Positions 2,321-55,732 of a stretch of 64,000 bases of DNA are shown here, piece by piece. Under the pieces are notes generated by a model. It searched no databases. It was given only the letters and a program-made list of their open reading frames with translations, and was not told where the DNA came from. The first letter of the stretch is position 1; the number at the start of each line of letters is the position of its first letter. A program made the translations under genes and the position numbers. This DNA comes from Acidobacteriota bacterium (GTDB lineage Bacteria; Acidobacteriota; Blastocatellia; Pyrinomonadales; Pyrinomonadaceae), in NCBI GenBank assembly GCA_020200155.1, contig JAIVJG010000160.1, positions 130-64,129 on the forward strand, read 5' to 3'.

Positions 2321-2557
2321 ATGAAACAGAAAACCAAGCACTCCATCCGTTTCGCAGTCTGTGTGAATAACTCCGAGTATCCGGCGTCGCTGGAACTCCA
2401 CAAAATTTACCGCCTGCTCCCCGACGAAGACGCTGCACAGGACGGCGACGTGCGCGTGATTGACGAAAGCGGAGAGGATTACCTGTATCCCGCCGATTAT
2501 TTTGTTGCTGTCGAACTACCACAGGAAATACAAAAGTCGCTGCTGCGTGCCGCCTGA
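2321..2557 (+). CDS. Small conserved hypothetical protein (78 aa), partner of the upstream frameshifted gene
   Basis: ORF track 2309..2557; ATG at 2321 gives MKQKTKHSIRFAVCV...VRVIDESGEDYLYPADYFVAVELPQ. It is tightly coupled to the upstream stop at 2314-2316. Confidence 0.6.
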   Translation: MKQKTKHSIRFAVCVNNSEYPASLELHKIYRLLPDEDAAQDGDVRVIDESGEDYLYPADYFVAVELPQEIQKSLLRAA

Positions 2558-2639
2558 TATCACACCATTCTCCCGCGCCGCGTCGTGCGACAATCAAACT
2601 GCTTCGAGCCTGTCGGTCGTGGTCGCTATCGCTTACGAG

Positions 2640-3467: not shown

Positions 3468-3677
3468 GTTGATTCAGCGCCGCTCTGCGTTCGTGTTGTG
3501 CGCGGGTATGTTCATCGAACGCGGACGCGCGCTGATTCAGCGTAGCCGTGCGTTCGTTTAGCGCATTGATGCGCTGATTTAGCGCAGTCGTGAGTTCTTT
3601 CAGCGCAGGCGTGCGCTGATTTAGCGCGCGATTGCGTTTGTCCAGCGCAAGCGTGCGCTTATCTAGCGCAGAGGTGC
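3468..3677. repeat. Phased tandem array, about 10 x 21 bp (5 x 42-bp super-units), each unit carrying TGCGYT-N5-YAGCGCA-like dyad
   Basis: Units read directly, for example GCTGATTTAGCGCAGTCGTGA / GTTCTTTCAGCGCAGGCGTGC / GCTGATTTAGCGCGCGATTGC / GTTTGTCCAGCGCAAGCGTGC / GCTTATCTAGCGCAGAGGTGC. Odd and even units alternate. The array lies between the DpnI-like gene and the next ORF. Confidence 0.85.
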
Positions 3678-3795
3678 GGGAAACGTCCTCGACGTGGTGT
3701 TAAAGTTGTTATTGAAATGAGTTTAAGAGAAGCGTATGATGCCCGCGTTCACCTCGCGCAACGCTCACGTCCAAATACAAAAAAAGGAGTTTCCA

Positions 3796-4193: not shown

Positions 4194-4235
4194 AAAGGCG
4201 AAGGAGGAGCAAGAGACAGTCCCCCCTTCGCCTTT
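4194..4235. terminator. Bidirectional stem-loop terminator between convergent genes
   Basis: AAAGGCGAAGG (4194-4204) pairs perfectly with CCTTCGCCTTT (4225-4235), 11 bp. It is A-rich upstream and has a T-run downstream. Confidence 0.6.
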
Positions 4236-8494: not shown

Positions 8495-11400
8495 CTCTCT
8501 CTCCTGCGAAGACCTCGATGAGCACGGGCTGCTCAGGCAGTTCGTCGAGCCACTGTTCGAGCCGCGAGCGCAACTGCTCACGCGTCAGCCGTCCGTACTC
8601 GCCCATCGGCGTGGCGACGCGCACGGGAGGCGGGGCCGCCATCCTCTGCAACGCACGCTCGATGAGCCGCACGTCGAGGCGCGTCAGATGTTCCGGCACG
8701 TTCTTTTGCGCGAAAGCCTTCGAGAGCGTGCGCGCGTGTTGCGTCGTCTCCGCGTCCTCATCCTTGCGCGCAAGCGCGTCGAGGGCAATCGCCAGATGGT
8801 CGCTCAACAGCGACAGCGTCCGGCGGTAAACTTCCAGCCCGCGCTCCATCGTCTCTTCCAACTCACGCGGCAGCGCCTCCAGCTCGGCCTCCAACGCCAG
8901 CCGGAACGAGCAGGCGCAGGCGGGATGCGTTTCGAGCAGTTGCCGCGCGGCGAAATCGCAGCGCGAGTCCGACTCAAGCCGCAAAAGCTCCGACGCCCTG
9001 TCCCATAAACTCCGGCTCACGACCGGCAGGCTTGAGAGCGCCTCGAACTGGCTCCAACGCTCTGTGCGCCTGAGCGTCGCGAGCCATTCCCGCTCGCACT
9101 CGACGCCGACAGTTTTATCATGAACGCCCGCGTAGTGCTCAACGTAACGCGCGTGGAACTCTCGCCAGAGCAGGTCGAAACGCTGCCAGGAGTCGAGCCA
9201 GCGCGACAGCGCCGCGCGCACAGCCGCGCGCCCGGAGGTAGTGCTGGCCGCCGGGAGTTCGTCGTTGCCAGTCAACAGGCGCGCCCAGTGCGTCAAGCTT
9301 TCCACGCTGTAGCGTGCGGTTTCGGCGCGGCATAAGCCCGCTACTTCGTCCCACTTGATGGAGCGCACAGGCGTCCGACGGCTGATGCGCTCGTCGCTCG
9401 TCGTCACGAGTTCGATGCGTCGCTGCGCTACGAGCGCGGCCAGCACCAGATGCTGCGCCTCGCTCAACAACCCATAAGGCTCGCCGCGCAGCGCCCGACG
9501 GACGCGTTCCAGCGACACGACCTGACCGGCCTCTCCTTCGGCCAGCGCGAGGACTTCCCTGTTCCAGGGCTGCGCGAGCGATTCGTCGCTCGTCTCAAAA
9601 GCGCAAGCCTCGCCTTCAATCGTCGCCAGACCGAGCGGCAGCGCGAACGCGCGGCACAGTCTCTGTGCGTCCGCCTCAGAGCTTTCCACGCCGCCGAAAA
9701 GTTTTTCCACCAGTTGCGTTACGTCTCGCTCGCCGAGCGTCTCTGTGAAGCGCGGGTGTTGCGGATAACGCTTGTCGAAGTGCGGCGCGAGCGTCTCGGC
9801 GAACACCGCGCCCAGCGTCCGCGCCGCGCGTGCCCTGTGCGTGAAGGACTCGCGCACGCCGTTGATGAAGAGCACGCTGTCGTTCACGTAGACGCGCGTC
9901 CAGATGCGCTCGGCCTGCGCGGCCAGCGTGTTCGTCGCGGCGCTGGCCGTCTCCCCGAATTTCGACCCGAACGCGGCGTCCGTGCGCAACGCGTGCAGGC
10001 GTCGAAGCGTCAACGCTTCCTCCGGCGTGAGCGCCGCCGGCTGCCACACGACGCGGACGGCCACGCTTGCGGATTCTTCGTCAACGTCCCGCGCCGCCTC
10101 GTCCTTCGCGTCGTGCTCCGAAGGCAGCGTACCGGGCGGAAGCATTAAAACTCCCCAGTCCGTATGCCTCGACGCGCTTTGAGACGCGCCGGCGGCTGGC
10201 GATGCCTGCGTGCCGCCGCTGTTGAGCGTCGGCCAGCTAACATGACCGGGCCGTTCGGAGCCGCGCCAGTTCAGGTGAAAGTTGACGCCCTCTTCATTCC
10301 CGCCTCTCTCGGCGGCCAGCGGCCAGTCCGCGAAGAGCGTGCGCGGGATGGCGCGTAGATGCTCAAGGGCCTGCGCCGCGTCGTCCGGCAATCCCTCGAC
10401 GTGCGCGTCGAGCGCGGCGTCGAGCGCCGCGGCGGGGCCGATCTGAAAACGGTAGCGCGTCTCCGCGCCGTCGCTCTTCGTGCTCGTATACAGCGTGCCC
10501 TCGCTCGCCACTTCCGCGAACCCCGCGAGGACGTTGCAGACGAACTCGGACGCATTACCCCCCAACGTCTCGTCCGACATCAACAGCGCCGCGCGCAACT
10601 CGCTGGCCGTCGCGCCGCGCCCGTCGAGCGAGAGGACGAAGAGGCTCTTCAAAATCAGGCGGGCCTGAAGCCGCTGCATGACCGGAACCTTCTCCAGCCC
10701 CTTCGACGCCAGATGATCGTAAGCCTCGAAGGCTTCTCGCAGTTCTTCCGACTTACGCAACTCGCCCTCGACGCTATCGAACACTTCGTCGAGCAGGATC
10801 AAAGAGAGCACGGGGCGGCCCAGTGCGCGCGCGGAGGCTTTGGCGGCGAAAGGCAGGAAGGCGAAGGACGACGCGTACAATCGCACCGACGCCGACACGT
10901 CCGCGACGAGCGGGTGCACGGGGTAGAGCGAGGCGAAGCGCGGCTCGCTCCAGTTGAACCCGTTGACGTTGGCGCGCAGGGAAAGATAAACGTCGTGGAG
11001 CATGTCGCGCGCCTGCGGACTCTTGCGTAGAAGATACTGCTCGACGATGCGATAGAGGTGTTCCGTGTCAACGTAGTCTATCTGGTACGTGCCGGAGAGC
11101 GCGACGTTCACGCCGTCCGCACCAGCGATGTCGTCGTCGAGCGCGAGGGCGACGAAGGCGTTGAGGCCCGCCGTCACCGCCTTCAAAGCGCCAAGTTGCG
11201 GCCCGTCGTCTCTGCACACGCGCGCCGGGCGGTTGAAAGCCGTATCAATACAGACGATCAGCGTCGCCTCGTTGGCGCGCGAGGCCGCGACCGCCAGCAT
11301 CTGCGCCGGATCGCTGCCCCACTGCACGTCGCTGCCGCCAAAAACCTTCGTGAAGGCGGCGGCCATCTCTTCGGCGAGCGTCGCACGCGTGCCACGCTCG

Positions 11401-11615
11401 ACCTGGACGACCCTGTAGCGGCGCTCCAACAGGCGGCGCGCACTGGTCGCGACGTGCGCGTCCTTTACCTCCCCGCGCAGCTTTTCCGACCCGGCCAGAG
11501 CGCAGAAGACCGCCAGCGTGTGGCTCTTGCCGACGCCGCGCGTGCCCGCCAGAGCACGCGCCGCCCCGCGCCCGCGCGGCAAATCCGCCAGCGCGTCGAG
11601 CCAGCGGGCCAGCAA
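8484..11615 (-). CDS. Large P-loop NTPase, BrxC/PglY-like (DUF499/DUF6079-type architecture), orphan
   Basis: 1043-aa ORF with Walker A GTRGVGKSH near the N-terminus, a Walker-B-like LIVCIDTAF, a 'LYPVHPLV' motif reminiscent of BrxC-type ATPases, and a long helical C-terminal region with C-x-C (HPACACSF). The family assignment is from memory. Confidence 0.75.
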   Translation of the reverse strand: MLARWLDALADLPRGRGAARALAGTRGVGKSHTLAVFCALAGSEKLRGEVKDAHVATSARRLLERRYRVVQVERGTRATLAEEMAAAFTKVFGGSDVQWGSDPAQMLAVAASRANEATLIVCIDTAFNRPARVCRDDGPQLGALKAVTAGLNAFVALALDDDIAGADGVNVALSGTYQIDYVDTEHLYRIVEQYLLRKSPQARDMLHDVYLSLRANVNGFNWSEPRFASLYPVHPLVADVSASVRLYASSFAFLPFAAKASARALGRPVLSLILLDEVFDSVEGELRKSEELREAFEAYDHLASKGLEKVPVMQRLQARLILKSLFVLSLDGRGATASELRAALLMSDETLGGNASEFVCNVLAGFAEVASEGTLYTSTKSDGAETRYRFQIGPAAALDAALDAHVEGLPDDAAQALEHLRAIPRTLFADWPLAAERGGNEEGVNFHLNWRGSERPGHVSWPTLNSGGTQASPAAGASQSASRHTDWGVLMLPPGTLPSEHDAKDEAARDVDEESASVAVRVVWQPAALTPEEALTLRRLHALRTDAAFGSKFGETASAATNTLAAQAERIWTRVYVNDSVLFINGVRESFTHRARAARTLGAVFAETLAPHFDKRYPQHPRFTETLGERDVTQLVEKLFGGVESSEADAQRLCRAFALPLGLATIEGEACAFETSDESLAQPWNREVLALAEGEAGQVVSLERVRRALRGEPYGLLSEAQHLVLAALVAQRRIELVTTSDERISRRTPVRSIKWDEVAGLCRAETARYSVESLTHWARLLTGNDELPAASTTSGRAAVRAALSRWLDSWQRFDLLWREFHARYVEHYAGVHDKTVGVECEREWLATLRRTERWSQFEALSSLPVVSRSLWDRASELLRLESDSRCDFAARQLLETHPACACSFRLALEAELEALPRELEETMERGLEVYRRTLSLLSDHLAIALDALARKDEDAETTQHARTLSKAFAQKNVPEHLTRLDVRLIERALQRMAAPPPVRVATPMGEYGRLTREQLRSRLEQWLDELPEQPVLIEVFAGERDGP

Positions 11616-12037
11616 GTCTGAAGTGAAGTCCGTGAAACGGTAGGCGGCGAGCGCCCGCGAGGGGTCTGCGGAGACGTTCCCCAGCTCGTCGAAGACGAAG
11701 CCGCTGCTATAATGCCTCGCCAGTCCCCATTCAAACGAACATCGGACAGAGCGGCAAGCCGCCCGGTTTAAGGCGCTACGGGCGTGAAAGTTGTCGGGAA
11801 CCCCGGCGCAACCTCTTGAGCGTCATGGCGCATCAAAGAGCTACACCCCCGCCACGGCTTTTCGATGCAAGCATCTCTTCGGCGGGCGAGCGTGCTTCTC
11901 TAATTCGGATGTGAGCTTTCGCCGCGCCCCTCGACAGCAGGGGATGCATGGGAACGTGGCTGTCATCAACGAAGCGTCCGCCCACACGCGGCCTTCCACA
12001 CGGTCACAGGCGTTGTAATTTTTGGAGGCTTTTCGCT

Positions 12038-14708: not shown

Positions 14709-14715
14709 TTTTCGG

Positions 14716-14796
14716 AATGATGTGTGCGGAGTGATGAACGATGAATTAAAAGCCGTCGCGCTTTCATCTTTCAGTCATCACTCCGCACTTATCATT
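14716..14796. repeat. Heptamer-built palindromic element (copy a)
   Basis: GTGCGGAGTGATGA (14724-14737) pairs perfectly with TCATCACTCCGCAC (14775-14788). It is flanked by AATGAT/ATCATT and GATGAA/TTCATC pairs. The arms read in 7-nt words (GGAATGA TGTGTGC GGAGTGA TGAACGA TGAATTA). Confidence 0.75.
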
Positions 14797-14912
14797 CATC
14801 GTTTCGCACAATCCATTGTCGTGTCCCGATTGGTTGCCTTCACGTTCGTTTGTGAAAGTCCTCTGGGATGCGGCGAGTACACTAAACCAATCCGCTAAAG
14901 AGGAGGCTACTT

Positions 14913-15980: not shown

Positions 15981-16063
15981 GGCGAAGCGGGAACAGCACA
16001 GATCACAACTTTCGGCGAGCGCAGCCTGCCAGTGCGGACAATCCGCCGGGCTGCGCATTTTTA

Positions 16064-16142
16064 TGATGCGGTGTGTTAAGCGTTGAATGATGAATGAACA
16101 GCAGCTTGTCTTTCATTCATCATCCGTCATTGCCGCATTCAT
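16064..16142. repeat. Heptamer-built palindromic element (copy b)
   Basis: GATGAATGAA (16089-16098) pairs perfectly with TTCATTCATC (16112-16121). An outer tier pairs ATGATGCGG with CCGCATTCAT. The word is TGAATGA. Confidence 0.75.
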
Positions 16143-16168
16143 CATTTTATCGAGGAGATAATCGAGTC

Positions 16169-16853: not shown

Positions 16854-17645
16854 ATGACAACAGCCGAGGCACAGACGACAACGACGAGCGCGCCCGCTTT
16901 CCGCCGTATTCTTTTGAAGGCGTCCGGCGAGGCCCTGATGGGCGCGCAGAACTACGGCGTTGATGTTGGAGTGGCGCACGCGATTGCGGAAGAGATCAAG
17001 GCCATACACGCGCTCGGCGTCGAGATCGCGGTCGTCGTCGGCGGCGGCAACATTTTCCGGGGCGTCTCGGAGAGTGCGGGCAACATGGATCGCTCGTCCG
17101 CCGACTACATTGGCATGCTCGCGACGGTGATGAACGCAGTCGTCTTGCAGGACGCGCTCGAAAAGACGGGCGTGCACACGCGCGTGCTTTCCGCCATCAA
17201 CATCCCGCAGGTGGCCGAGCCTTTCATACGCCGCCGCGCCATCCGCCATCTGGAAAAGGGGCGCGTCGTCATTTTTGCTGCGGGCACGGGCAATCCGTAC
17301 TTCACGACCGACTCGGCGGCGGCGCTCCGCGCGCTCGAAATCAGGGCCGACGTGATCCTGAAGGCGACGAAGGTTGACGGGATTTACACAGCCGACCCCG
17401 TCAAAGACTCAGCGGCGACGCGCTACGACTGCATCACATACAGGGAAGTCCTCGAACAGCAGTTGAAGGTGATGGACGCCTCGGCCATCAGCCTGTGCAT
17501 GGACAACGGGCTGCCGATCATCGTTTTCAACATGCGCACGTCCGGCAACATCATGCGCGTCGTGATGGGCCAAGAGGGCGTCGGCACGCGTGTCTGCAAC
17601 GAAAGGCCGGTCAATAGTAAATCGTCAATGGTAAATGGAGAGTAG
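16854..17645 (+). CDS. pyrH: UMP kinase
   Basis: [14 protein letters not shown]...[11 protein letters not shown]...[20 protein letters not shown]. The last 12 or so codons lie inside the downstream palindromic element. Confidence 0.93.
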
Positions 17646-17689
17646 CTCCATTCGTTTACCATTGGCGATTCACCATTCACCATTTACCC
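17612..17689. repeat. Heptamer-built palindromic element (copy c)
   Basis: The arms are CAATAGT AAATCGT CAATGGT AAATGGAG and CTCCATTCGTTTACCATTGGCGATTCACCATTCACCATTTACC. TGGAG/CTCCA, GGTAAA/TTTACC and CGTCAAT/ATTGGCG pair around the 5-nt loop AGTAG. Confidence 0.75.
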
Positions 17690-18260: not shown

Positions 18261-18305
18261 CCCTTCACGCGCAAAAATCGCTCCCGACTTCAATCGTTTC
18301 CAACG

Positions 18306-18346
18306 AAAAGAGAGACTGCCCCGCATCGAGGCAGTCTCTCTTTTTG
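18306..18346. terminator. Bidirectional Rho-independent terminator (frr / convergent OMP gene)
   Basis: AAAAGAGAGACTGCC (18306-18320) pairs with GGCAGTCTCTCTTTT (18330-18344). It has an A-tract upstream and a T-tract downstream. Confidence 0.8.
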
Positions 18347-18409
18347 TATCCCGGCAATTCTCTAAACGACGAAGGGAGGCGCTTCCCTTCACCGTCTTCA
18401 AAGTGACTT

Positions 18410-29767: not shown

Positions 29768-30216
29768 TCACCAATCGCTGTAGCGCGTGCCGTCGGCAGC
29801 CGTGTCGCCGGAGGAACTGTGTACGTTCCCGACGCCGGAACCGTGGCCGGAAGGATCATCTCTAGGTTCGGTCGCCCAGTCGCCGGCCCCTGTCATCGGG
29901 TCAATGGGAAGCTCCTGTATGTATCCGGCCTGCACGAGCGCTTCGAGCGATTCCGGCTGCTTGCCCTTGTCGGCTGCGTACTGGTCAATCATCCTTCGCA
30001 TGTCGTGCAGGTCGGCCCTCAGTGTGGCCTCCTTGGCGGCCTGCACGGTCTGGCTGTAGTGAGCCATGGCAATCATCGCGAGGACGATGATGACCGAAAT
30101 GACGATCATCAGTTCGAGCAGAGTGAAGCCGGACGGTCGGCGGCGAGGAAAGGGTAAAGGGTAAAGGATGAAGGATGAAGGAGCAGTAAGCTCGCGGCCT
30201 CCCTTTCCACCTTCCA
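29768..30216 (-). CDS. GspG-like pseudopilin/pilin with prepilin-type N-terminal motif
   Basis: G|FTLLELMIVISVIIVLAMIA class-III signal. The only plausible start is GTG 30216, giving a 33-aa leader. The C-terminus is ...GTRYSDW. Confidence 0.7.
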
Positions 30217-30232
30217 CCTTCCCCCTGACCCT
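30144..30232. repeat. Heptamer-word purine/pyrimidine mirror element (copy d, degenerate)
   Basis: GAAAGGG TAAAGGG TAAAGGA TGAAGGA TGAAGGA G ... CTCCCTTTCC ACCTTCC ACCTTCC CCCTGACCCTC. Complementarity is only partial. It overlaps the leader-coding part of the pseudopilin gene. Confidence 0.5.
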
Positions 30233-30242
30233 CAATTCTTCT

Positions 30243-30971
30243 TTACCACTCACTGTATTTCTCTCCGTTGAGCGCAGTCCCTTCGGCCTTCGAGCGCACG
30301 TCGAACACGTTGACGGGATTCGAGGAGCAGCCGTCGTCGGGCGGGTCGTAGCTCGAACGCAGACACCAATCCTTCTCGCCCGTGATCGGGTCAACGGGAA
30401 TTTCGCGCAGGTAGATTTTCTTTTTGGTCGAGAGGAGTGGATTGTCGGTAGCGTTGCCCTTGGTGCCTCCCGCTAAAGCGCCCGCCACGGTGGAGCGCGG
30501 AATGACGCTGACGCCGCTCACGAGCGTCTCCAGATCGGGCGGGAAGTTGTCAGGGTTATCCACGCCGAAGATTTTGCAGTCGCTGATGACGACCTTGCTG
30601 CGCGGGTCTATGTAAGCTGTCGGAGGGGGGCCGCCCCCGGTGGTGGGAGCAACCGCGCAGGTCATGCCGATGGTATCGCGCTTGAACTCCTTGACGGCCT
30701 CGCGCATCTCCCGCAGCGCCTCGCGCAGTTGCTGCTCCTTCTGCCGCTGCACGGAATTCCTGACCAGTGGAATCACGCCGAGCGTCAGAATCGTCAGCAC
30801 CGTGATGACGATGACGAGTTCGATGATCGTCATGCCGCCTGTGGACGAGCGAAAGTGGGAGCGATTGAAAGGCGCGGGGTTGAAGGAACGGCTTGCCGCG
30901 ATCCCTTGTCCCGTTCTCCTTCTGGCCTCTCCCTTCATTTTCATCTGTCTGGCCTGCCGGTTACTCATCAA
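30243..30971 (-). CDS. GspG-like pseudopilin/pilin, long form
   Basis: The G|MTIIELVIVITVLTILTLG prepilin motif is preceded by a 37-46-aa leader. The C-terminus is ...NGEKYSEW and parallels the downstream paralog. Confidence 0.75.
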   Translation of the reverse strand: MMSNRQARQMKMKGEARRRTGQGIAASRSFNPAPFNRSHFRSSTGGMTIIELVIVITVLTILTLGVIPLVRNSVQRQKEQQLREALREMREAVKEFKRDTIGMTCAVAPTTGGGPPPTAYIDPRSKVVISDCKIFGVDNPDNFPPDLETLVSGVSVIPRSTVAGALAGGTKGNATDNPLLSTKKKIYLREIPVDPITGEKDWCLRSSYDPPDDGCSSNPVNVFDVRSKAEGTALNGEKYSEW

Positions 30972-33868: not shown

Positions 33869-33975
33869 GGGAAACAGAAGGCTCAGGCCAGCAGGCAGAA
33901 GGCGGAAAACAGAAGTCAGCGAAAGAGTCTGGTCGCTCCGGGGCTTACGGCTTACTGCTTTCTGCTTTCCCCGCC
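33869..33975. repeat. Heptamer-built palindromic element (copy i)
   Basis: Seven consecutive words CAGAAGG CTCAGGC CAGCAGG CAGAAGG CGGAAAA CAGAAGT CAGCGAA face CTTACGG CTTACTG CTTTCTG CTTTCCC CGCC. The 3' arm supplies the last codons and the stop of the gspE-like gene. Confidence 0.6.
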
Positions 33976-35699
33976 CCGTCGCCGTTGAGTTTGACCTCTT
34001 CGACGAAGGTGACGCGGTTGATCTCGTGCAGCGTCGAGACGCCTGCGAAAATTTTCTGGAGCGCCGACTCGCGCAAACTGCGTAAGCCTTCGGACTCCGC
34101 CGCGCGGCGCACTTCCGAGCCGGGCCGTCGCTCGATAATCATCTCGCGGATGTTGTCCGAGAGGTTGAGCAGTTCGTGAATCGCCGTGCGCCCGCGATAG
34201 CCCGTGTGGTTGCAGGCGTCGCAGCCGACGCTCATGTAGAAGGTGCGGTGCTGATGCTCCGACGGTCTCAGGCCCGACTCCATCAACTCCTCATCCGTCG
34301 GATGGTACGTGCGCTTGCAGACGTTGCAGAGCATGCGGACGAGCCGCTGCGCCAGCACGCAGTTCAAGCTTGAGACGAAGTTGTAAGGCTCCACGCCCAT
34401 GTTCAGGAAACGCCCGATAACGTCAATCACGTTGTTGGCGTGGACGGTCGTGAAGACGAGGTGGCCGGTCAGGGCCGACTGGATGGCGATCTGCGCCGTT
34501 TCATTGTCGCGGATTTCGCCGACCATGATCTTGTCCGGGTCGTGGCGCAGTATGGAGCGCAGGCCGCGCGCGAACGTCAGACCCTTCTTCTCGTTGACCG
34601 GAATCTGCGTGATGCCGTGCAACTGGTACTCGACCGGGTCTTCAATCGTGATGATCTTGTCTTCTTCGTTGCGAATCTCGTTGAGCGCGGCGTACAGAGT
34701 AGTCGTCTTGCCGGAGCCGGTCGGGCCTGTGACGAGCACCATGCCGTAAGGCTCGGCGATGTAGCGCCTGAAGTTCTTCAGGTCGTCGGCGTCGAAGCCG
34801 ACCACGTCGAGCTTGAGGTCGCGGAACTCGTCGTTGATTTGCTCCTTGTCGAGAATACGGATGACGGCGTCTTCGCCGTGCACGGTCGGCATGATCGAGA
34901 CGCGGAAGTCAACGGTGCGGCCCTTGTAGCGGACGCGAAAGCGCCCGTCCTGCGGCACGCGGCGCTCGGCGATGTCGAGTTCCGACATCACCTTGATGCG
35001 AGAGATGAGCGTCTGGTGATAGCTCAGGTCAATCGGATCAACCTTGGCGTAGAGCGCGCCGTCAATGCGGTACTTAACTTGTACCTCCGTGTCGCGCGTC
35101 TCGATGTGGATGTCGGAGGCGCGCGACTCCATCGCCTGATAGACGATGGTGTCCACGAGCTTGATGATCGGCGACATCTCGGAGTCGGTCGCCAGCCGGT
35201 CGAGGTCCAAGACCTCCTCGCCGTGTTCCGTCTCCTTGACGAGCGAGATGCGGAAGCCGGAAGTCGCTTCTTGGAGGACGCGCTGTGTTGCGTCGCCCTT
35301 GCGCAGCACCACGTCAATCGCGCCGGCAGTCGCTACGTGCGGGATGATGCGCGCGTGAAGGGCCGAGGCGATCTCGTCGAGGCGTTCGAGGTCGGTCGGG
35401 TCGGCCATCGCGATGTGCAGCCGACGCCCTTCGCGGCGGAGCGGGACGAACAGGTGGCGCACCATCAGGTCAACCGGAACCTCGCCGAGCAGAGCGAAAT
35501 CAATCGGGGATTCGCCGACCGGCGGGAGCAGGTCAACGTAAGGCAGGCGGTAGCGACGCGCGAGTTCCATCGCCGCGCGCACTTCGGGCGGCGTGTGGCC
35601 CTCGCCGTTCGCGCCGGGGGACGGACTTGAGCCGCGCGCCGCTGCGTCGTCGCCGGACGGCGCGGCCTCTGTCTTGATTTCTTCGGTTATCTGGCTCAT
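33945..35699 (-). CDS. GspE/PilB-family secretion ATPase
   Basis: 584 aa with a T2SSE_N-like N-domain, Walker A GPTGSGKTTT, Asp/His boxes, and a tetracysteine CNVC...CDAC motif. Confidence 0.92.
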   Translation of the reverse strand: MSQITEEIKTEAAPSGDDAAARGSSPSPGANGEGHTPPEVRAAMELARRYRLPYVDLLPPVGESPIDFALLGEVPVDLMVRHLFVPLRREGRRLHIAMADPTDLERLDEIASALHARIIPHVATAGAIDVVLRKGDATQRVLQEATSGFRISLVKETEHGEEVLDLDRLATDSEMSPIIKLVDTIVYQAMESRASDIHIETRDTEVQVKYRIDGALYAKVDPIDLSYHQTLISRIKVMSELDIAERRVPQDGRFRVRYKGRTVDFRVSIMPTVHGEDAVIRILDKEQINDEFRDLKLDVVGFDADDLKNFRRYIAEPYGMVLVTGPTGSGKTTTLYAALNEIRNEEDKIITIEDPVEYQLHGITQIPVNEKKGLTFARGLRSILRHDPDKIMVGEIRDNETAQIAIQSALTGHLVFTTVHANNVIDVIGRFLNMGVEPYNFVSSLNCVLAQRLVRMLCNVCKRTYHPTDEELMESGLRPSEHQHRTFYMSVGCDACNHTGYRGRTAIHELLNLSDNIREMIIERRPGSEVRRAAESEGLRSLRESALQKIFAGVSTLHEINRVTFVEEVKLNGDGAGKAESSKP

Positions 35700-47776: not shown

Positions 47777-49585
47777 CTATTTTTCGAGATACATCTTCGC
47801 GGCCATCTTCGCCAGCTTCCACATCTTGCCCCACTCGATGCGCCCCTCCGCGTTATCGCGCCCGGTGATTTTATCCACGATCAGCCGTCGAAAATGTTTG
47901 CCCTCACGCTTGAGCATGAACTCTTTGGCGAAAGGCTTGGCTGTGTCGAAGAAGCTGAACTCCGGGTCGGTGACGAGGCCGATGCCTTCCAGCGTCATCA
48001 GCGCGCGGATGATGTAAGTAAAATTCGAGGGCAGGCGGAACGGGTAGTCGTACATCACTTCCGCGAGATCGTAGGTCAATTCTTTGAAGTTGACCTCGCC
48101 GAGCTTGAGGTTGAGATAGTGCTGGAACAGCCCTTCGACGACGGGACGTACCTTGTCGGGATCAACGCCGGGCTTCAGGAATTTGAGATTAATCAAGTCC
48201 TGCGCAAGCCCCTGCACGTCGCGCCCGACGACGTGGAAGAAGGCGTCAATCATCTGCGACTGAAGCTGCGGCGCAATTCTGCCCGTCATCCCGAAATCGA
48301 GGAAGACGAGATGCCCGCTGTCCATCACGAGCAGGTTGCCGGGGTGCGGGTCTGCGTGAAAGAAACCATCTTCGAGCAACTGCTTGAGGTACGCGTGCAC
48401 GAGCAGGCGATTGACTTTGACCGGAGAGATGCGTCGAGCCTGCAAGCCTTCGATGTCCACGACCTTCGTGCCGCGTATGAACTCCATCGTCAGCACGCGT
48501 GTCGTCGTGTGCGTCCAGTAGATGCGCGGCACGTAGACGGGTTTCCAGTCGCGAAAATTCTGGCGGAAGCGCTCGGCGTTGCGGCCCTCCCGCACGTAAT
48601 CAATCTCTTCGGCGACCGTCTCGCGAAACTCGCGGAGCATGCCCTCCCAATCGGCGTTCTCCGTCGCGGCGGGAAAGCGCGAGATGAAGCGCACGATGCG
48701 TTGGAGGACGGAGATGTCGAACTGAAGCGTCTCGCGCAAATCGGGGCGCTGGACTTTGACCGCGACTTCCTGCCCCGTGTGCAGCCGCGCTCGATAAACT
48801 TGTCCGAGCGAGGCGGCGGCAATCGGCTCGGCGTCAATCTCCGCGAAGGCTTCCTGTAGGCTCACTCCGAGTTCGCGCTCGACGCACGCGTAAGCCTCTG
48901 CGGTCGGGAAAGGCGGCACTTGATCCTGCAAGGTGGAAAGCTCTTTGACGTAAGGCAACGGCAGGAGGTCTGCGCGCGTGCCGAGCGACTGGCCGATCTT
49001 GATAAACGTCGGGCCGAGCGCGATCAGATTTTTCCTCAGCCAGACAGACTGCTTCCGCAGGCGGGCTTCTTTGCCCTCCGTCCCTTCCCCGCCGCGAAAG
49101 ACGGAGAGGCGCACGAGTCGAATCAACTTGTCGAGTGCGTGGCGGTCTACGTCGCGGCTCCACTCCTGAAAAAGTGCGACGCGCCCGCGCGCCCGCGCCT
49201 CTTCGCGCCTGCGTTCGGCCATGCGCCGTGTGAATTTGTAGCGCACGTCGTAGTCGTTCAGGAAAAGATAGAGAGCCATCGTGCCGAGCACGCGCACGAT
49301 CTCAAACGTCCGCAGCCAACCGCGCCAGCCGCGAGCCTCAAACGCGCCCAACTCGCTCGCCGGAATCTCAGGCTGGACAGTGGCGGCTCGCGCCTTGGAA
49401 GACAATGAGAGCGCGTGTCCTTGACCGTTCTCAGTGCCCGCAGCCCGCCCGTTTTCAGTCTTCACCAGCGCCAGAGCAGTCTTCGATCCCCCGTCGCGGC
49501 TGTTTCCGCCGTGGCCGTTCGGCTGTTCGCGCCCCGCCGCACCGGGCAGGAATTCTCTTTCCAATTCTTTTAGTTCGGTAGCCAT
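47777..49585 (-). CDS. ABC1/UbiB-family atypical kinase
   Basis: ..[49 protein letters not shown].. motifs. The start is taken at MATELKELE (49585). Confidence 0.88.
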
Positions 49586-49634
49586 GATGTCGTTCAATAA
49601 AGTACCCGGAAGATGTCGCAATCCTGTCTCACAT

Positions 49635-49714
49635 AGTTCAAGGTTCAAAGTTCAAAGTTAGGGAACGGAGTCATGTTCTTCAGACTTTGAATTTTGAACC
49701 TTGAACTTTGAACT
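49635..49714. repeat. Heptamer-built palindromic element (copy f)
   Basis: AGTTCAA GGTTCAA AGTTCAA AGT (49635-49658) pairs 23/24 with ACTTTGAATTTTGAACCTTGAACT (49684-49707). The loop is 25 nt and an extra TTGAACT word follows. It starts 6 nt after the ribF stop on the minus strand. Confidence 0.85.
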
Positions 49715-49719
49715 CGCAT

Positions 49720-50673
49720 TCAGACGACGGCCAGCGAGCGACGCACACACTCCCTCTCGAAATAGCACGCGGCGCGCTCCACGTCCCTGTCAATCTGCCG
49801 CTTCAACTCGTCCACCGACGCGAACCTGCGCTCGTCGCGCAATCGTCGCAGGAAGCGCACGCGTATCACGTCGCCGTATAAATCCCCGCTCCAATCCATT
49901 ACGAACGTCTCGACCGAAGGTTCGGCCTCATTTTCAAACGTCGGGCGCACGCCGATGTTGGTCATGCTGCGCCGCCATTCGCCCCCGATCAAAGTCGCCG
50001 TCACGTAAACTCCACGCCGGGGTATGACGCGATTCAGGGGCCGGAGGTTCGCCGTCGGAAAGCCTATCGTGCGCCCGCGCTCCGCCCCGCGCACGACACG
50101 GCCCTCGACGCCGTAAGGGCGTCCGAGCATGCGCCGCGCGAGATTCACACGCCCCTCTGAAAGCAATTCGCGGACGCGGCTTGAACTGATCCGCTGGCCG
50201 CGCAGGCGCACCTCCGGCACTTCGTCGGCGAAGAAGCCGAGCCGCTCGCTGACGCGTCTCAACAGTTCGATGTTGCCCTCGCGTTCGTGGCCGAAAGCGA
50301 AGCCGCGCCCCAGATAGACCTCCTTCGCCTGAAGGCGTTCACGCACCACGTCGCGCAAAAACTCCTCTGCGCGCACCTGCGCGAACTGCCGTGTGAAGCG
50401 CACGACGATGGCCTGCTCGATGCCGAGCAAGCCGAATGCCTCGACCTTCTGGTCGAAGGTCTGCAAAAGCGGCGGCGCGGATTCCGGGTGCAGGACGGCG
50501 CGCGGGTGCGGGTCGAAAGTTATGACGGTCGGCACCGCGCCCAGCGCACGCGCGCGTTCGACGACCGTCCGCATCACCAGTTGATGGCCGAGGTGCAGCC
50601 CGTCGAAGACGCCGAGCGTCAGTACCGTCGGTCGCGCAATCTCCGCGTTGTCAGCTCCATGAAAAAGACGCAT
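49720..50673 (-). CDS. ribF: Bifunctional riboflavin kinase / FMN adenylyltransferase
   Basis: MRLFHGADN..TLGVFDGLHLGHQ.. is followed by a C-terminal riboflavin kinase domain (..GFPTANL..GVY..). Confidence 0.92.
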   Translation of the reverse strand: MRLFHGADNAEIARPTVLTLGVFDGLHLGHQLVMRTVVERARALGAVPTVITFDPHPRAVLHPESAPPLLQTFDQKVEAFGLLGIEQAIVVRFTRQFAQVRAEEFLRDVVRERLQAKEVYLGRGFAFGHEREGNIELLRRVSERLGFFADEVPEVRLRGQRISSSRVRELLSEGRVNLARRMLGRPYGVEGRVVRGAERGRTIGFPTANLRPLNRVIPRRGVYVTATLIGGEWRRSMTNIGVRPTFENEAEPSVETFVMDWSGDLYGDVIRVRFLRRLRDERRFASVDELKRQIDRDVERAACYFERECVRRSLAVV

Positions 50674-50680
50674 AACAAAT

Positions 50681-50755
50681 AAGGGATGAGGGATGAAGAA
50701 TAAGGGATGAAAAGAGTGCATCCCGTTTCATTCATCCCTCATCCCTCATCCCTCG
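50681..50755. repeat. Heptamer-built palindromic element (copy g)
   Basis: AAGGGAT GAGGGAT GAAGAAT AAGGGAT GAAAAGA faces TTTCATTCATCCCTCATCCCTCATCCCTCG. 50682-50696 pairs perfectly with 50732-50746 (15 bp). There is an inner GGGATG/CATCCC hairpin. The 3' arm supplies the stop of the MBL gene. Confidence 0.85.
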
Positions 50756-51510
50756 ATTACCATTCCGTCGTAGCCGAACTGGACGCCTGCGGGCAAGAGC
50801 GCGGAGTCGCGCTCGTGTTTGAAGTCGTGCGCGATGTGCGTCAGGAAGGTGCGGCGCGGGCGCAACTCTTCGACGTAGGCGAGTGCCGTCTCAAGGTACA
50901 GGTGCGTCGGATGGGGCTTGACGCGCAGGCAGTCGAGGACGAGCACGTCGAGGCCGCGCAGTTGTTCCAGAGTCTCCGGCGGAATCTTGCTCAGGTCTGT
51001 CGCGTAGGCGAAGTCGTTGATGCGATAGGCGACGACGGGGAGACGACCGTGAATCACTTCGAGCGGTGTGACGTGAAAGTCAGGGCTGAGGTCGAAAGGC
51101 GCGGAGGCGACGACCGTGTGCGCGACGACTTGCGGCAACCCGCCGCCGTAGTGCGTCGGCTCGAAGATGTATTGAAAGATGTGGCGAATGTCGCGCCAGG
51201 CGCGTTCGTTGGCGTAGACGCCGAGCGCGCCGTGGCGAAAGTTGAGAGGGCGTATGTCGTCGAGGCCGAAGATGTGGTCTGCGTGGCAGTGCGTGATGAG
51301 CACGGCGTCGAGATGGCGTAGGCCCTGACGAAGTGCCTGCTGGCGAAAGTCGGAAGAGGTATCAATGAGCACCGTCTGCCCGTCATGCTCGACGAGCACG
51401 GAGACGCGCAGGCGTTTGTCGCGTGGGTCGTCCGAGGTGCACGTCTCGCAATCGCAACCGATGGACGGCACGCCCGTCGAAGTCCCTGTGCCGAGGAGTG
51501 TGAATTTCAT
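50746..51510 (-). CDS. MBL-fold metallo-hydrolase
   Basis: 254 aa with the HCHADH motif (HxHxDH) and the typical beta-lactamase-fold order of metal ligands. Confidence 0.85.
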   Translation of the reverse strand: MKFTLLGTGTSTGVPSIGCDCETCTSDDPRDKRLRVSVLVEHDGQTVLIDTSSDFRQQALRQGLRHLDAVLITHCHADHIFGLDDIRPLNFRHGALGVYANERAWRDIRHIFQYIFEPTHYGGGLPQVVAHTVVASAPFDLSPDFHVTPLEVIHGRLPVVAYRINDFAYATDLSKIPPETLEQLRGLDVLVLDCLRVKPHPTHLYLETALAYVEELRPRRTFLTHIAHDFKHERDSALLPAGVQFGYDGMVIEG

Positions 51511-51514
51511 TGCC

Positions 51515-51595
51515 GGTAAATGGTGAATGGTAGATAGTGAATGGTGAAAGACAGTTCATGTCCATTCGCCATTTACCATTCACCAGCATTTCACC
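51515..51595. repeat. Heptamer-built palindromic element (copy h)
   Basis: GGTAAAT GGTGAAT GGTAGAT AGTGAAT GGTGAAA G faces CCATTCGCCATTTACCATTCACCAGCATTTCACC. The stem is about 24 bp including G.U pairs. It shares words with copy c. Confidence 0.85.
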
Positions 51596-52202
51596 TTCCG
51601 CCCGTGATGTCGCTGCCGGAGAAGCCGCGTGGGCCGGGCGAGACGACACCGCCGCGCGAACCGCTCGTCAGCGAGACGTACTGCATACGCAGTTGCGAGA
51701 GTATCAACTCGAAGAACTGCTGCTCTTCGGCGTTGAGGTTGTTGCGCGTCTTCTTTTGCAGCGTGCCGAGCATGTCTATGCACTGCTTGGCGAGCGGGAG
51801 ATTGACTTCGCGACCGACCGCGCCTGGATGATTCACGAGGCCAAGCGCGTCCGCCGCGAAAGATGCGATGAACTCCACGACCATGAGGAATTCCTGCGGG
51901 TCGTCGTCCTCTTCTTCGGCGGGCGTCGCGGCGGGGGGCGCAGGCTCAGCATGAGCGACGCCGCGCACGGCGGTCGGCGACGGCACAGTCTGGTCTGCTG
52001 ACGATGGCGTCGCGGCGGAAGTGTGCGCGGCCTCAGGCTCGGAGCCTTCCGTACCGGAGGCGGGTGCAGGCGCGCTTTCGACGGCGGCTTCAGGCTCCTG
52101 CGTCGTCGCCGGTTCCGCTTCGCGCACGATGTCGCGCGGCGTGCCGTCTGTGTTGAAGAGGCGGCGGTCTGTGACTTTGAAAGTGGGTTTTTCTTCGCTC
52201 AT
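51591..52202 (-). CDS. DUF1844-like acidic hypothetical protein
   Basis: [20 protein letters not shown]..; an acidic Ala/Pro/Thr/Glu-rich linker; a conserved-looking C-terminal half ([19 protein letters not shown]..). Confidence 0.6.
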
Positions 52203-52403
52203 GTTGATATACAAACGTCCTGCCACGCGCGGCGGGCCGGACACCAGACGAGTTCAGTTTCAGAGTTTCGCTTGCGGACGGATGGTAGCACCTGCCTTGT
52301 TGGAGTCTCAAGTGCGGACACATCGGCGCTCCACTCAGGGCTGCGACCGGCAGGCAAAGCTTTTGACTTGAGACTTCAGGCTCCGGACTTTAGACTGTCC
52401 GGC

Positions 52404-53960: not shown

Positions 53961-55451
53961 TCAATACTGGTTGCTGAGTTGCAACGAACGCAGTATGTCC
54001 GCGAATGTCCGCTGGTACGTGCCGTACTCGTCGCTAGGTGCGACGCCGGCCATGTAGAATAGGTCTCCGCTGCCGAGCATCGTCGTGATGATCGTCACTC
54101 TTTCGGTGCGCCCGGTAATGGGCGACCGTCCCATCAGGGTCGTCGCGAGCGCGTTGCGCCCGTTGACGGTGGTGCGCTGGAAACCGCCCGACTGTCGGAG
54201 ATAAGTATTACCCTGCGCCTGCAAGAGGTCGTTGACGTACTGCTGCGACGCGCGTTGCAAGTCCGAGTACTGCTCACGGTCTGTGCCGAACATGACGCCG
54301 TGCGTGATGCCCTGCGAGCCGTAAGCGCCCTCCGGGGCGTAGGACACGCTGTTGCCCTCGCTCCCCAACTGCCGCCAGTTCTCAGGGATGGCGACGCGGA
54401 ACAAGTTGTTGCCGTCGTTGCGATAGCGCGTCGAAGGATAGGCGACGCGCTCGCCGCGCCCGTAGCTATCGTCCTGCGGGTTGCGACCGTCGTTGGGATA
54501 GCGTCCATCATTGGGGTTGCGTCTGTCATTGGGATAGTTTCCCTGATTCGGATTCTGCTGGCCGCTGCGCGCGATCTCTTCCATCGAGCGTGCGCGCGGG
54601 AAGCCACGCAGACGCGCCTGCACGTCGCGGAACTGGCGCGTGTCCTGCGTCGCCGCGTTCGGGTTGACGCGCAGCATCGCCGCTTCCTGATTGATGCGCT
54701 CGTAACGATTGCCCGGATTCGGGTGGCTGCTCAGCCATTCAGGGCCGCCGCTGCCGCCGCCCTGCCGCTCAATCGTCCTGAACATATTTGCCAGGTCGCG
54801 CGGGTCGTAACCGGCGCGCGCCATGATCTGCGCGCCGAGGATGTCGGCCTGCGTCTCGTACTTGCGGCTGTACTTCAAAGCGCCCGCGCCGAAACCGATC
54901 TGGCTGCCCGCGCCGACGATGCCGCCGATGGGGCCGCCGATGACCGCGCCCGCGATCTGTCCGAGCACGGAACCGATCTGATATTTCTGCGTCTCGGTGG
55001 CCTGTGCCGTGGCGTGCCTGAGCGCGGCGTGGCTGATCTCGTGTGCCATCACGCCCGCCATCTCGCCCTCGTTGTGCGCCGCTTCGATCATGCCGCGATT
55101 AACGAACAGAGGGCCGCCCGGCAGCGCGAAGGCGTTGATGTCGCGCGCGTCAACCACGTCGAACGAGTAGCGGAACTCCGGGTGCTGAAACTCCGACGGG
55201 ATGGCCGAGACGAGGCGGCTCCCGACGGAGTTGACGTAACTGCGAATCCCCTCGTCGCGCAGCATCGGCATCTGCTGATATACCTGTTGGGCGGCTTGCT
55301 GGCCGGCCTTCACGTCGTCCTGCACATTATACTTATTGCGCGGGGCTTCGATCCGCGTCTGCCCCAGAGCGGCGAGCGGCATCACCAGAATTGCCAGAGC
55401 CATGAGCCACGCTGTCAGACGATGCGCGCGACGGTTGTTAATATTCGTCAT
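53961..55451 (-). CDS. Secreted M48-family zinc metallopeptidase with low-complexity central region
   Basis: ATG 55451 has GGAGGGG upstream. It has a signal/TM segment, HEISHAALRH (HExxH), and RNPNDGRYPNDGRNPQDD repeats. Confidence 0.85.
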   Translation of the reverse strand: MTNINNRRAHRLTAWLMALAILVMPLAALGQTRIEAPRNKYNVQDDVKAGQQAAQQVYQQMPMLRDEGIRSYVNSVGSRLVSAIPSEFQHPEFRYSFDVVDARDINAFALPGGPLFVNRGMIEAAHNEGEMAGVMAHEISHAALRHATAQATETQKYQIGSVLGQIAGAVIGGPIGGIVGAGSQIGFGAGALKYSRKYETQADILGAQIMARAGYDPRDLANMFRTIERQGGGSGGPEWLSSHPNPGNRYERINQEAAMLRVNPNAATQDTRQFRDVQARLRGFPRARSMEEIARSGQQNPNQGNYPNDRRNPNDGRYPNDGRNPQDDSYGRGERVAYPSTRYRNDGNNLFRVAIPENWRQLGSEGNSVSYAPEGAYGSQGITHGVMFGTDREQYSDLQRASQQYVNDLLQAQGNTYLRQSGGFQRTTVNGRNALATTLMGRSPITGRTERVTIITTMLGSGDLFYMAGVAPSDEYGTYQRTFADILRSLQLSNQY

Positions 55452-55732
55452 GTCAATCCCCTCCACTGATAAGCGCGCTCAAACAGGAGCGCGTTAAAGT
55501 TAATTCGTAAAATCGAAAAGCGACACGAGGCCGCAGCGTCAGCCGGAGGTCGTGTCGCTTAAAATCGAAGCTCCTCTTCCCTCCGATTAATTCTCGACGT
55601 AAACGGCCACTCAAAGGCGCGTAGAGGGAGAGAGCGTCTAACTTCTTTCGCCGGAACGCGAACGCCATTTTCGGCGGCGCGTCTCAAGGCAAACCTTAAG
55701 ATGACTTTCAGCACACTGTGGTTGGCCTCTAA

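Follow-up and report, generated by a model that had tools for sequence, protein, structure and literature searches.

The 64,000-nt stretch of DNA analysed here (the window; from contig JAIVJG010000160.1 of an Acidobacteriota bacterium of the Pyrinomonadaceae) carries three palindromes, termed E1, E2 and E3, whose arms are arrays of tandem 7-nt words and which lie at gene junctions of one minus-strand operon (Table 1). The three are real members of a large family of hairpin repeats in the Pyrinomonadaceae, and this family is lineage-wide and statistically overwhelming. Its members are spread and reshaped rapidly, which somewhat recalls the REP elements of E. coli, although their construction is different. 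We rather favour the interpretation that its members are dispersed palindromes similar to repetitive extragenic palindromic (REP) sequences, their hairpin-forming doublets (REPINs) or MITEs (miniature transposable elements with inverted repeats), with heptanucleotide microsatellite arms that are driven by slippage, and that they most likely serve as REP-like punctuation of RNA. At the level of sequence comparison, persistence at junctions, turnover of words, variation in unit number and copying between sites are documented, and the origin and dynamics of the elements seem reasonably supported; for their role in RNA (mRNA stability, processing or translational coupling), we put forward a hypothesis. 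The palindromes had been noticed in a first-pass annotation of the window, the interpretation of which is, overall, partly supported.

Architecture of E1, E2 and E3

Pfam assignments give the order DUF1844 > E3 > MBL > E2 > ribF > E1 > ABC1/UbiB along the minus strand. All three of the annotated heptamer-built palindromes of 75-85 nt were found in place, and Tandem Repeats Finder assigned a period of 7 to all six arms. Their location in one minus-strand operon with MBL, ribF and ABC1 holds as well, except that E3 follows DUF1844 and not ABC1. Folded as RNA, the sense (minus) strand gives −34.4 to −46.4 kcal/mol and the plus strand −36 to −43.3 kcal/mol, with z-scores of −6.6 to −9.6, and none of 200 dinucleotide shuffles was as stable.

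E1 pairs arms of 27 nt (49632-49658 and 49684-49710, complementarity 93%) across a loop of 25 nt and is built on the word AGTTCAA, its arrays comprising 3.6 copies of AGTTCAA (49635-49659) and 4.4 copies of ACTTTGA (49684-49714). E2, built on AGGGATG, can pair in two registers, one with arms of 31 nt (50679-50709 and 50719-50749, complementarity 84%) and an alternative one (50688-50711 and 50731-50754, 88%), leaving loops of 9-19 nt across registers; its arrays consist of AGGGATG (50682-50710) and of 3.3 copies of TCATCCC (50732-50754). The E3 word is GGTGAAT: arms of 24 nt (51521-51544 and 51562-51585, complementarity 88%) enclose a loop of 17 nt, an outer register pairs 51511-51530 with 51569-51588, and the arrays hold 4.9 copies of GGTGAAT/GGTAAAT (51515-51548) and 3.4 copies of CCATTCA (51562-51585). 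E1, E2 and E3 belong to three dispersed families (AGTTCAA, AGGGATG and GGTRAAT, respectively), and the E1 word family recurs at the orthologous junction in L004 and L005 (L-numbers denote loci of relatives) as well as at other junctions of other genomes.

Each element abuts or supplies a stop codon, as had been annotated: the MBL and DUF1844 stops lie inside heptamer words and the ribF stop lies 5 nt from the E1 array. On the other side, the ATG codons of MBL and ribF stand 0-5 nt beyond the 3' arms of E3 and E2. A U-rich UUAUUUGUU follows E2 on the sense strand just ahead of the ribF AUG, so that the annotated absence of a U-tract is correct for E1 and E3 but not for E2.

As a separate observation, most Pyrinomonadaceae loci have a conserved motif ACAGGATTGCGACA (49614-49627 in the window, minus strand; variants include cacaggattgcgacaag) in the interval from the hairpin to the start of ABC1/UbiB, and this motif may be a promoter or regulatory element of ubiB. 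At the protein level, MBL shares 100% identity with a sequence from an Acidobacteria metagenome-assembled genome (MAG), and its nearest relatives are from Pyrinomonadaceae.

A family defined by period, polarity and position

The comparison set amounted to 1.24 Mb in 81 Pyrinomonadaceae sequences, and the loci compared were 80 species-level genome loci around the MBL orthologue, ten metagenome contigs and six loci around frr. The annotation had described the 7-nt period as conserved, and the period is specific: 253 of 354 lag-7 tandem arrays have an inverted partner within 70 nt (the loop limit of the detector), whereas at lags 4-12 there are 6-92 arrays with 0-9 partners. Strong inverted repeats are enriched, numbering 351 against 6 in shuffled sequence, and the lag-7 match fraction in their arms is bimodal (at least 0.6 in 173 of the 351), no other lag giving a comparable mode. 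At least one element is present in 72 of the 81 sequences. Outside the DUF1844-ABC1 cluster, stringent thresholds yield 36 elements per 877 kb, a density that, if extrapolated, implies a few hundred elements per genome.

The arms have a median length of 29-30 nt (about four units) and the loops a median of 21-26 nt, with a G+C content of 0.43 in the arms in genomes of 0.54-0.70. Among 253 arms there are 71 canonical words, in agreement with the earlier view that the family is one of architecture and not of sequence. Its polarity is likewise as described, with the G/A/T-rich words first on either strand: the 5' arm (A 0.33, C 0.12, G 0.32, T 0.23) is richer in G than in C by a count of 146 elements versus 12, and of 34 versus 0 among independent elements outside the cluster. 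As the elements are palindromes, this polarity is true on both strands and therefore intrinsic, no matter of strand choice. Because 7 mod 3 = 1, the 5' arms often carry stops in all three frames (65 of 134, versus 21 of 134 3' arms).

Some inverted heptamer array pairs lie 100-250 nt apart instead of about 20 nt (L009 4015-4232; L075 1875-2196; L052 10780-10932). They were scored as solo arrays by the detector with its 70-nt loop limit, and their spacing suggests insertions into loops or variants with very long loops.

With respect to genes, the median start of the paired 5' arm is at −1 nt relative to where the upstream stop codon ends, compared with 28 nt for inverted repeats without heptamers. 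At the DUF1844>MBL junction (J1), 1 nt separates the stop from the arm and 6 nt separate the arm from the ATG, and at the MBL>ribF junction (J2), the stop is found 11 nt into the arm and 7 nt remain between the end of the arm and the ATG. For elements outside the cluster, distances to the next start are bimodal: about half of them lie at most 21 nt away and the rest 37-130 nt. Of 32 elements that could be classified, 24 are at co-directional junctions (background 63%). Heptamer elements are under-represented at convergent junctions, which are instead enriched in other inverted repeats (38% versus 20%), as expected of terminators. A Shine-Dalgarno-like motif before MBL or ribF was found at none of 159 junctions, with or without a hairpin, which makes these junctions uninformative as to whether the hairpin replaces a Shine-Dalgarno sequence.

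Orthologous junctions are filled in 60-62 of about 80 species, and empty sites occur in L030, L049 and L068, where the genes overlap (ATGA) or lie 5-13 nt apart. Among relatives, 62 of 79 have a heptamer hairpin at J1, 60 of 80 at J2 and 11 of 57 at J3, several junctions scored negative holding degenerate heptamer elements, and the J1 hairpin is present in all ten metagenome contigs that share the J1 flank. The junction words vary between clades (e.g. GGTGAAT, CGTGAAT, GTTTCAA, AGTCCCA, AGTCTGG, TAGCTGT, AGTTTTC, CAGTGGT and CCGTGAA). An alignment of 42 J1 elements has a consensus stem of 27 pairs with compensatory double changes at 26 of them: 90.7% of the alignment cells are paired, a value attained by 0 of 500 shuffles (62.9% paired), changes on both sides affect 364 cells, versus 116 in shuffles, and sliding the partners by 1-3 columns brings pairing down to 26-45%. 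At a finer scale, L012 and L014 differ by one unit per arm and L009 and L010 by a single compensating base, and unit counts vary inside word families, in comparisons of relatives rather than of a strain series.

The rpsI-rpsB-tsf-pyrH-frr operon repeats the pattern in six further genomes. At rpsI>rpsB and pyrH>frr, heptamer hairpins are found in 6-7 of seven genomes (the six and the window), with words that are different in each, and at rpsB>tsf, the element lies downstream of a conserved, GC-rich T-tract hairpin and ahead of the Shine-Dalgarno sequence of tsf. The tsf>pyrH junctions of five genomes hold two heptamer families, a GC-rich heptamer-like sequence, a REP-like palindrome and unrelated sequence; in L095, tsf>pyrH is an empty site with a single GTTCAAA. 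An A-R-T skeleton in alignment A1 had suggested a single ancient J1 element with gradual word drift only. This idea was rejected, as the sharing of arm-plus-loop families with other sites and the five tsf>pyrH fillers indicate that replacement occurs besides word drift, and the alignment itself may account for part of the skeleton.

Junctions without heptamer hairpins often hold long GC-rich REP-like palindromes (e.g. GGGGCGGACCC... and TCACCACAGAGGCACAGAGG...), as seen at MBL>ribF in L070, at tsf>pyrH in L099, at ribF>ABC1 in L008, L025 and L044, and in L042, L080 and L056; the spacers past stop codons seem to be landing sites for palindromic repeats in general.

When similarity was required to span the loop as well as the arms, 105 of 220 elements fell into 16 families that occur at two or more non-orthologous sites, and 19 words were found in at least two junction classes. 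Paralogues within one genome were detected in L011, L095, L051, L098, L018 and L054, the L011 pair (64 nt) being 86% identical across the loop and inner arms. Arm-plus-loop homologues at non-orthologous sites and within genomes indicate that elements have been copied between sites, and they lend direct support to the MITE-like selfish element that was one of the roles considered in the annotation. The orientation of loop homologues relative to transcription is the same in five cases and opposite in one, numbers too small to use. L095 also contains a nested element in two copies 1.8 kb apart (9814-9920 and 11600-11705) that flank one gene, with outer GAACGAT arms enclosing an inner hairpin with GGTGTTA arms.

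Relation to described repeats and possible explanations

The whole window yielded no Rfam match at the gathering score, consistent with the annotated lack of a described family, and only miRNA-precursor hairpin models appeared below threshold (17-36 bits versus thresholds of 50-114). The elements had also been set apart from classical intrinsic terminators, and rightly so: their arms (median 29 nt, G+C content 0.43, genome about 0.62) and median loop of 26 nt do not fit the expected short stem rich in G+C with a loop of 3-8 nt, at least five T among the eight positions after the stem (either strand) are found in 23% only, the spacers run from stop to start without room for a promoter and there is no enrichment at convergent junctions. 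A consensus terminator scan did not call them. As to REP sequences, bacterial interspersed mosaic elements (BIMEs) and REPINs, the consensus was rejected because the 71 words have no common GTAG/CGTC tag and the arms are tandem repeats, not palindromes; dispersed multi-copy extragenic families as in REPs do exist, with 16 families and same-genome paralogues. With regard to MITEs, which have terminal inverted repeats, a target-site duplication and kinship to an autonomous insertion sequence (IS), the whole element is an inverted repeat, and no IS was seen. Integron attC sites were dismissed, since the words vary, conserved R''/R' core sites (RYYYAAC ... GTTRRRY) are absent, E2 and E3 lack GTT/AAC cores, the window holds no integrase, and the flanks are syntenic housekeeping genes in about 80 species. 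An identity with CRISPR was rejected, and so were G-quadruplex repeats with at least four G3 tracts per array: E1 and E3 have no GGG, E2 has three per arm, and most words lack G3.

That nothing similar was known, as the annotation had it, is not supported. Heptanucleotide simple sequence repeats (SSRs), as summarised in PMC4679880 and PMC4692102, GGGAATC pairs in Xanthomonas (PMC4692102) and paired sites in Geobacter (PMC2700814) all exist. The heptamer arrays (GGGANTN)n of Xanthomonas mostly have about four units and form 70-75 convergent inverted pairs per genome; 89-93% of the repeats are intergenic, mostly between co-directional genes and nearer to the upstream than to the downstream open reading frame (ORF), and in this high-GC host their position is kept between species while length and sequence are variable (Rehm et al, 2015; PMC4692102). 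The elements described here share with them the tandem 7-nt units, the convergent inverted pairs with the G-rich arm first that are able to form a stem-loop, the intergenic location near the upstream ORF and between co-directional genes, the high-GC host, and a position kept between species despite variable length and sequence. Yet the Xanthomonas repeats have essentially one G-rich consensus that is read as a G-quadruplex, whereas the Pyrinomonadaceae have dozens of families, mostly without G-tracts, and arrays that are almost all paired and lie at a median of −1 nt from the stop, compared with 28 nt on average in Xanthomonas (PMC4692102).

In many bacteria, heptanucleotides are the most abundant class of long SSRs, whose intergenic location follows from 7 not being divisible by 3 and for whose excess slippage has been proposed as the mechanism (Mrazek, 2007, as summarised in PMC4679880 and PMC4692102). 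With these, the elements have in common at least three tandem 7-nt copies, an intergenic location, over-representation of lag 7 and differences in unit number between relatives; the SSRs are direct arrays, however, and an obligatory inverted partner, polarity, stop placement and spread of families lie outside their description as summarised there. REP, BIME and REPIN sequences resemble the elements in being dispersed extragenic hairpins, typically after gene ends and between co-transcribed genes, of which several sequence types can coexist in a genome; in REPINs, two halves in inverted orientation form a hairpin of about 100 nt (see also Di Nocera et al, 2013; PMC3733652). They differ in having 20-40 conserved nucleotides, a GTAG/CGTC tag and halves that are each palindromic, whereas the Pyrinomonadaceae arms are tandem heptamers without a shared tag. 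REP and REPIN elements are mobilised by REP-associated tyrosine (RAYT, Y1) transposases, and no RAYT gene was seen in the 10-64 kb, or about 0.3%, sampled of each genome. Geobacter metallireducens has sets of 4-5 tandem 7-8-nt units that are mostly paired and multi-copy (Aklujkar et al, 2009; PMC2700814); like the present elements, these are paired tandem heptanucleotide or octanucleotide sites spanning both strands, but they consist of the fixed words MTYCTGA and GTTGCTYN, are regarded as putative sites of a global regulator and are described without stop placement or word turnover (PMC2700814). Also comparable are the TAACTGA arrays of Beggiatoaceae, cyanobacteria and Bacteroidetes, which are intergenic, have 2-6 units and contain stop codons (MacGregor, 2015; PMC4679880). 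They lie near starts of genes without canonical ribosome binding sites and have been suspected of a post-transcriptional role, but represent direct repeats of a single word (one indirect among 170 sets) without hairpins (PMC4679880).

Coexisting word families, near-universal pairing, flush contact with the stop and turnover are in none of the Xanthomonas, Geobacter and TAACTGA reports. We found no literature on such elements in Acidobacteria, and the combination of inverted pairs of heptameric SSRs with REP/MITE-like dispersed palindromes has, as far as we found, apparently not been described before. The heptanucleotide excess in bacteria has been noted since 2007 without an accepted explanation, the Xanthomonas case having been interpreted as G-quadruplex biology. 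The same architecture recurs in the Pyrinomonadaceae although the words, of which there are dozens, are unrelated, which suggests that its general features are the period, the pairing of inverted arms, the polarity with G first and the stop placement rather than any one sequence.

An element comprises a 5' arm, rich in G and poor in C, with three to five 7-nt units in tandem, a loop (about 10-60 nt) and a 3' arm made up of the complementary units. Many word families coexist in one genome and are copied between intergenic sites, where the elements settle nearly flush with the upstream stop and often fill the spacer to the next start or Shine-Dalgarno sequence. Both arms change jointly while the 7-nt period is retained. 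Under the interpretation that we favour, units would be gained and lost by replication slippage, with its known bias toward 7-nt units, and intra-strand template switching, selection for pairing or a combination of the two would keep the arms complementary. Such template switching is the process known as quasipalindrome correction. Inside operons without room for a promoter, the elements would be transcribed as part of the polycistronic mRNA and fold as hairpins of 24-31 bp, and as operons with essential genes leave no room for downstream promoters, they could not be efficient terminators. REPs affect mRNA stability, and also translation when near stop codons; similar punctuation here would protect or process the upstream cistron at its 3' end. 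Where junctions are flush, the stop and a start without Shine-Dalgarno sequence may be brought together at the stem base so that translational coupling survives the insertion, an arrangement that would mimic the overlapping ATGA of genomes without the element. The G-first polarity would place stop-rich sequence by gene ends and G-poor, start-poor sequence by gene starts and may filter which elements are tolerated.

Several results weigh against this interpretation. No transposase, integrase, IS or other mobilising gene was found among the genes of the 64-kb window. Target-site duplications are not evident from the comparison of empty and filled sites, in which the element boundaries are fuzzy. 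A dedicated RNA hairpin would be expected to have a shorter loop than the 20-25 nt or so seen here, and mismatches on the sense strand are symmetric, with 86 G:U versus 94 A:C and the same symmetry in other inverted repeats, thus giving no indication that the RNA of one strand is under selection. Elements are missing at junctions in some genomes and hence dispensable there. Polarity is no weaker in elements far from genes (Fisher p = 0.18 and 0.86), leaving a coding-context filter unproven, and stop triplets are not clearly enriched beyond word composition (TGA 19 observed versus 12 expected, TAA 8 versus 8.6, TAG 9 versus 11.8). The idea that words are selected for stops in three frames was rejected for the little excess that the composition control leaves, and stops are retained only as a consequence or filter.

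Much of the evidence could instead be read in terms of selected intercistronic RNA hairpins with repeats as a secondary feature, the stem setting mRNA stability or processing (RNase III, exonuclease barrier) or gating translation of the next cistron to termination of the one before it. A position kept across about 80 species with 26 of 27 pairs compensatory, the flush fit between a stop and a Shine-Dalgarno-less start, the preference for co-directional junctions and the frequent replacement of absent heptamer hairpins by other palindromes (L070, L099, L008, L025 and L044) would all follow. Selection for pairing alone, however, leaves the retained 7-nt periodicity unexplained; G:U pairs are not in excess over A:C on the sense strand, some genomes have empty junctions, paralogues at unrelated sites point to spread independent of local function, and the rpsB>tsf element follows a separate conserved hairpin, away from the stop codon. 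We hold this explanation to be possible, if on the unlikely side. It is improbable that the elements are purely local palindromic microsatellites, each produced in place by slippage of a stop-adjacent heptamer and subsequent inverted duplication and then maintained by quasipalindrome template switching, with neither mobility nor function. Bacteria in general are biased toward an excess of heptamer SSRs (as summarised in PMC4679880 and PMC4692102), and one-unit differences in both arms and single compensating substitutions between relatives, the single GTTCAAA unit at the empty L095 tsf>pyrH site and the symmetry of G:U and A:C mismatches are what local processes would leave; but these do not account for arm-plus-loop homologues at non-orthologous sites and within one genome, for 19 words common to different junction classes, or for five fillers at one junction in five genomes.

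Strong hairpins directly past stop codons, the U-rich stretch between E2 (and its orthologues) and the ribF AUG, and the T-runs flanking 8397-8457 might bring to mind non-canonical, U-tract-poor terminators or attenuators at gene ends. We consider this very improbable, given that J1 and J2 offer no promoter space for MBL and ribF and elements also lie inside rpsI-rpsB and pyrH-frr, that their stems are AT-rich with long loops and are followed by at least five of eight T in only 23%, that the consensus scan did not call them and that convergent junctions, where other inverted repeats abound, are poor in them. Even less credible are protein-binding arrays, for a global regulator or for RNA binders of the Csp/S1 type with 7-nt footprints, or G-quadruplex-forming repeats. 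Four to five phased 7-nt units do look like iterated binding sites, G3-rich families exist (AGGGATG, AAAGGGG), and the heptamer repeats found in Geobacter, Beggiatoaceae, Nostoc and Xanthomonas have been suggested to act in these ways (PMC2700814; PMC4679880; PMC4692102). With 71 different canonical words, however, one sequence-specific binder is ruled out; AGTTCAA, GGTGAAT, GTTTCAA and others are devoid of G-tracts, E2 has three GGG runs per arm, and the words, being paired with the opposite arm, would be double-stranded.

A more novel interpretation, which we find doubtful, is that of a hitherto unrecognised class of mobile palindromes with self-renewing heptamer arms, recognised or propagated through structure and periodicity and not through sequence, and targeting post-stop sites; between translationally coupled genes, the stem-joined stop and start would allow re-initiation across about 80 nt, and unit number could act as a heritable rheostat of cistron ratios. 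One operon junction that is empty, variously filled and of differing unit number represents a natural experiment, and the system is suited both to testing the effects of long hairpins in essential operons (rpsI-rpsB, pyrH-frr, ribF) on mRNA fate and translational coupling and to studying the co-evolution of palindromes and microsatellites. The elements extend or supply C-terminal codons and stops of genes, and they may confuse gene-start prediction and MAG assembly in a dominant group of soil bacteria.

Further members and neighbouring features of the window

The window contains six lag-7 self-matching segments versus 0.0 in shuffles, other lags (4-15) giving 0-2. A relaxed scan for inverted repeats with lag-7 periodic arms identified eight clear members including E1-E3, together with two partial ones (Table 1), and thus fewer clear copies than the at least ten members that had been claimed. 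In the pyrH>frr element, the pyrH frame continues through the 5' arm to a stop in the loop (17643-17645), and orthologous hairpins are present in five of six further relatives. The element at 30149-30226 pairs the words AAAGGGT/GAAGGAT with TTCCACC units, with gaps in the pairing. At rpsB>tsf, the degenerate element 16090-16146 lies downstream of the conserved GC-rich T-tract hairpin and upstream of the tsf Shine-Dalgarno sequence, and a heptamer hairpin directly follows this conserved hairpin in six of seven genomes. The array at 33942-33969 has no inverted partner within 70 nt.

Table 1. Positions of heptamer elements and associated genes and codons in the window.
Feature	Position	Strand	Location and remarks
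DUF1844 gene	51591-52244	minus	Pfam
DUF1844 stop TGA	51591-51593	minus	within outermost GGTGAAA unit of E3
E3 heptamer-repeat hairpin	51511-51593	minus	occupies whole DUF1844>MBL spacer
MBL start ATG	51508-51510	minus	directly after E3; no preceding Shine-Dalgarno-like motif
MBL-fold/PhnP-like hydrolase gene	50746-51510	minus	Pfam
MBL (PhnP-like) stop TGA	50746-50748	minus	within GGGATGA unit, sense-strand 5' arm of E2
E2 heptamer-repeat hairpin	50679-50754	minus	occupies whole MBL>ribF spacer
ribF start ATG	50671-50673	minus	5 nt past E2 paired arm; no preceding Shine-Dalgarno-like motif
RibF gene	49720-50673	minus	Pfam
ribF stop TGA	49720-49722	minus	5 nt upstream (sense) of E1 heptamer array, 9 nt from paired arm
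E1 heptamer-repeat hairpin	49632-49714	minus	ribF>ABC1/UbiB junction
ABC1/UbiB likely start ATG	49583-49585	minus	46 nt downstream (sense) of E1
ABC1/UbiB gene	47777-49585	minus	Pfam
Clear member	17609-17688	plus	pyrH>frr junction; GGTCAAT/AGTAAAT/GGTAAAT, word family as E3
Clear member	14715-14797	plus	6 nt past rpsI stop, ahead of rpsB leader; GAATGAT/GAGTGAT; lag-7 match 0.56
Clear member	30149-30226	minus	16 nt downstream of stop of minus-strand gene 30243-30971
Clear member	8397-8457		AAAGAAG/AAAGGGG; about 27 nt downstream of stop of minus-strand gene 8484-11615; flanking T-runs
Clear short two-unit member	4194-4235		AAAGGCG AAGGAGG / complement; between convergent genes
Partial/degenerate member	16090-16146	plus	ATGAATG / TCATTCA units; rpsB>tsf spacer
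Partial member (array)	33942-33969	minus	GGCTTAC x2, TGCTTTC x2; overlaps stop of type II secretion system (T2SS) ATPase gene 33945-35699

Arms are partly translated, and elements thus create variable C-terminal tails: heptamer units encode the last 12 residues of PyrH (17609-17645) and the last few codons of MBL (50746-50760). MBL orthologues are 253-260 amino acids long, with one of 286, and the L003 frame (among L003/L007) crosses about three units.

In the same ribosomal operon, a leader of about 100 nt upstream of rpsB (14800-14912; L094-L099) is conserved as CCATTGTCGYG...GGTTGGTTGC...GGCGCGGCGAGTACAYYAAACCAATC...AGGAGG and shows complementarity of GGTTGG with CCAATC; it could be a leader for S2 autoregulation and gave no Rfam match even at E ≤ 1. 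The conserved GC-rich hairpin after rpsB, GCGCAGCC...GGGCTGCGC with a T-rich run (16019-16062, and in the rpsB>tsf spacers of relatives), resembles the rpsB-tsf attenuator of other bacteria. A canonical terminator-like hairpin follows frr (18303-18347), with a stem of 21 bp that is 90% complementary, a loop of 3 nt and flanking A/T runs, and ordinary intrinsic terminators thus coexist with heptamer elements. Two further tandem repeats were noted in the window. One is a 21/42-nt repeat at 3529-3678 in the spacer after a DpnI-like (Dam-replacing family) gene (2460-3425), with about 3.4 copies of the 42-mer, half-sites like GCGCTGA...TCAGCGC and a lower G+C content of 0.55. The other, at 54478-54533, is an in-frame 18-nt repeat of 3.1 copies inside an M48 peptidase gene (53961-55466).

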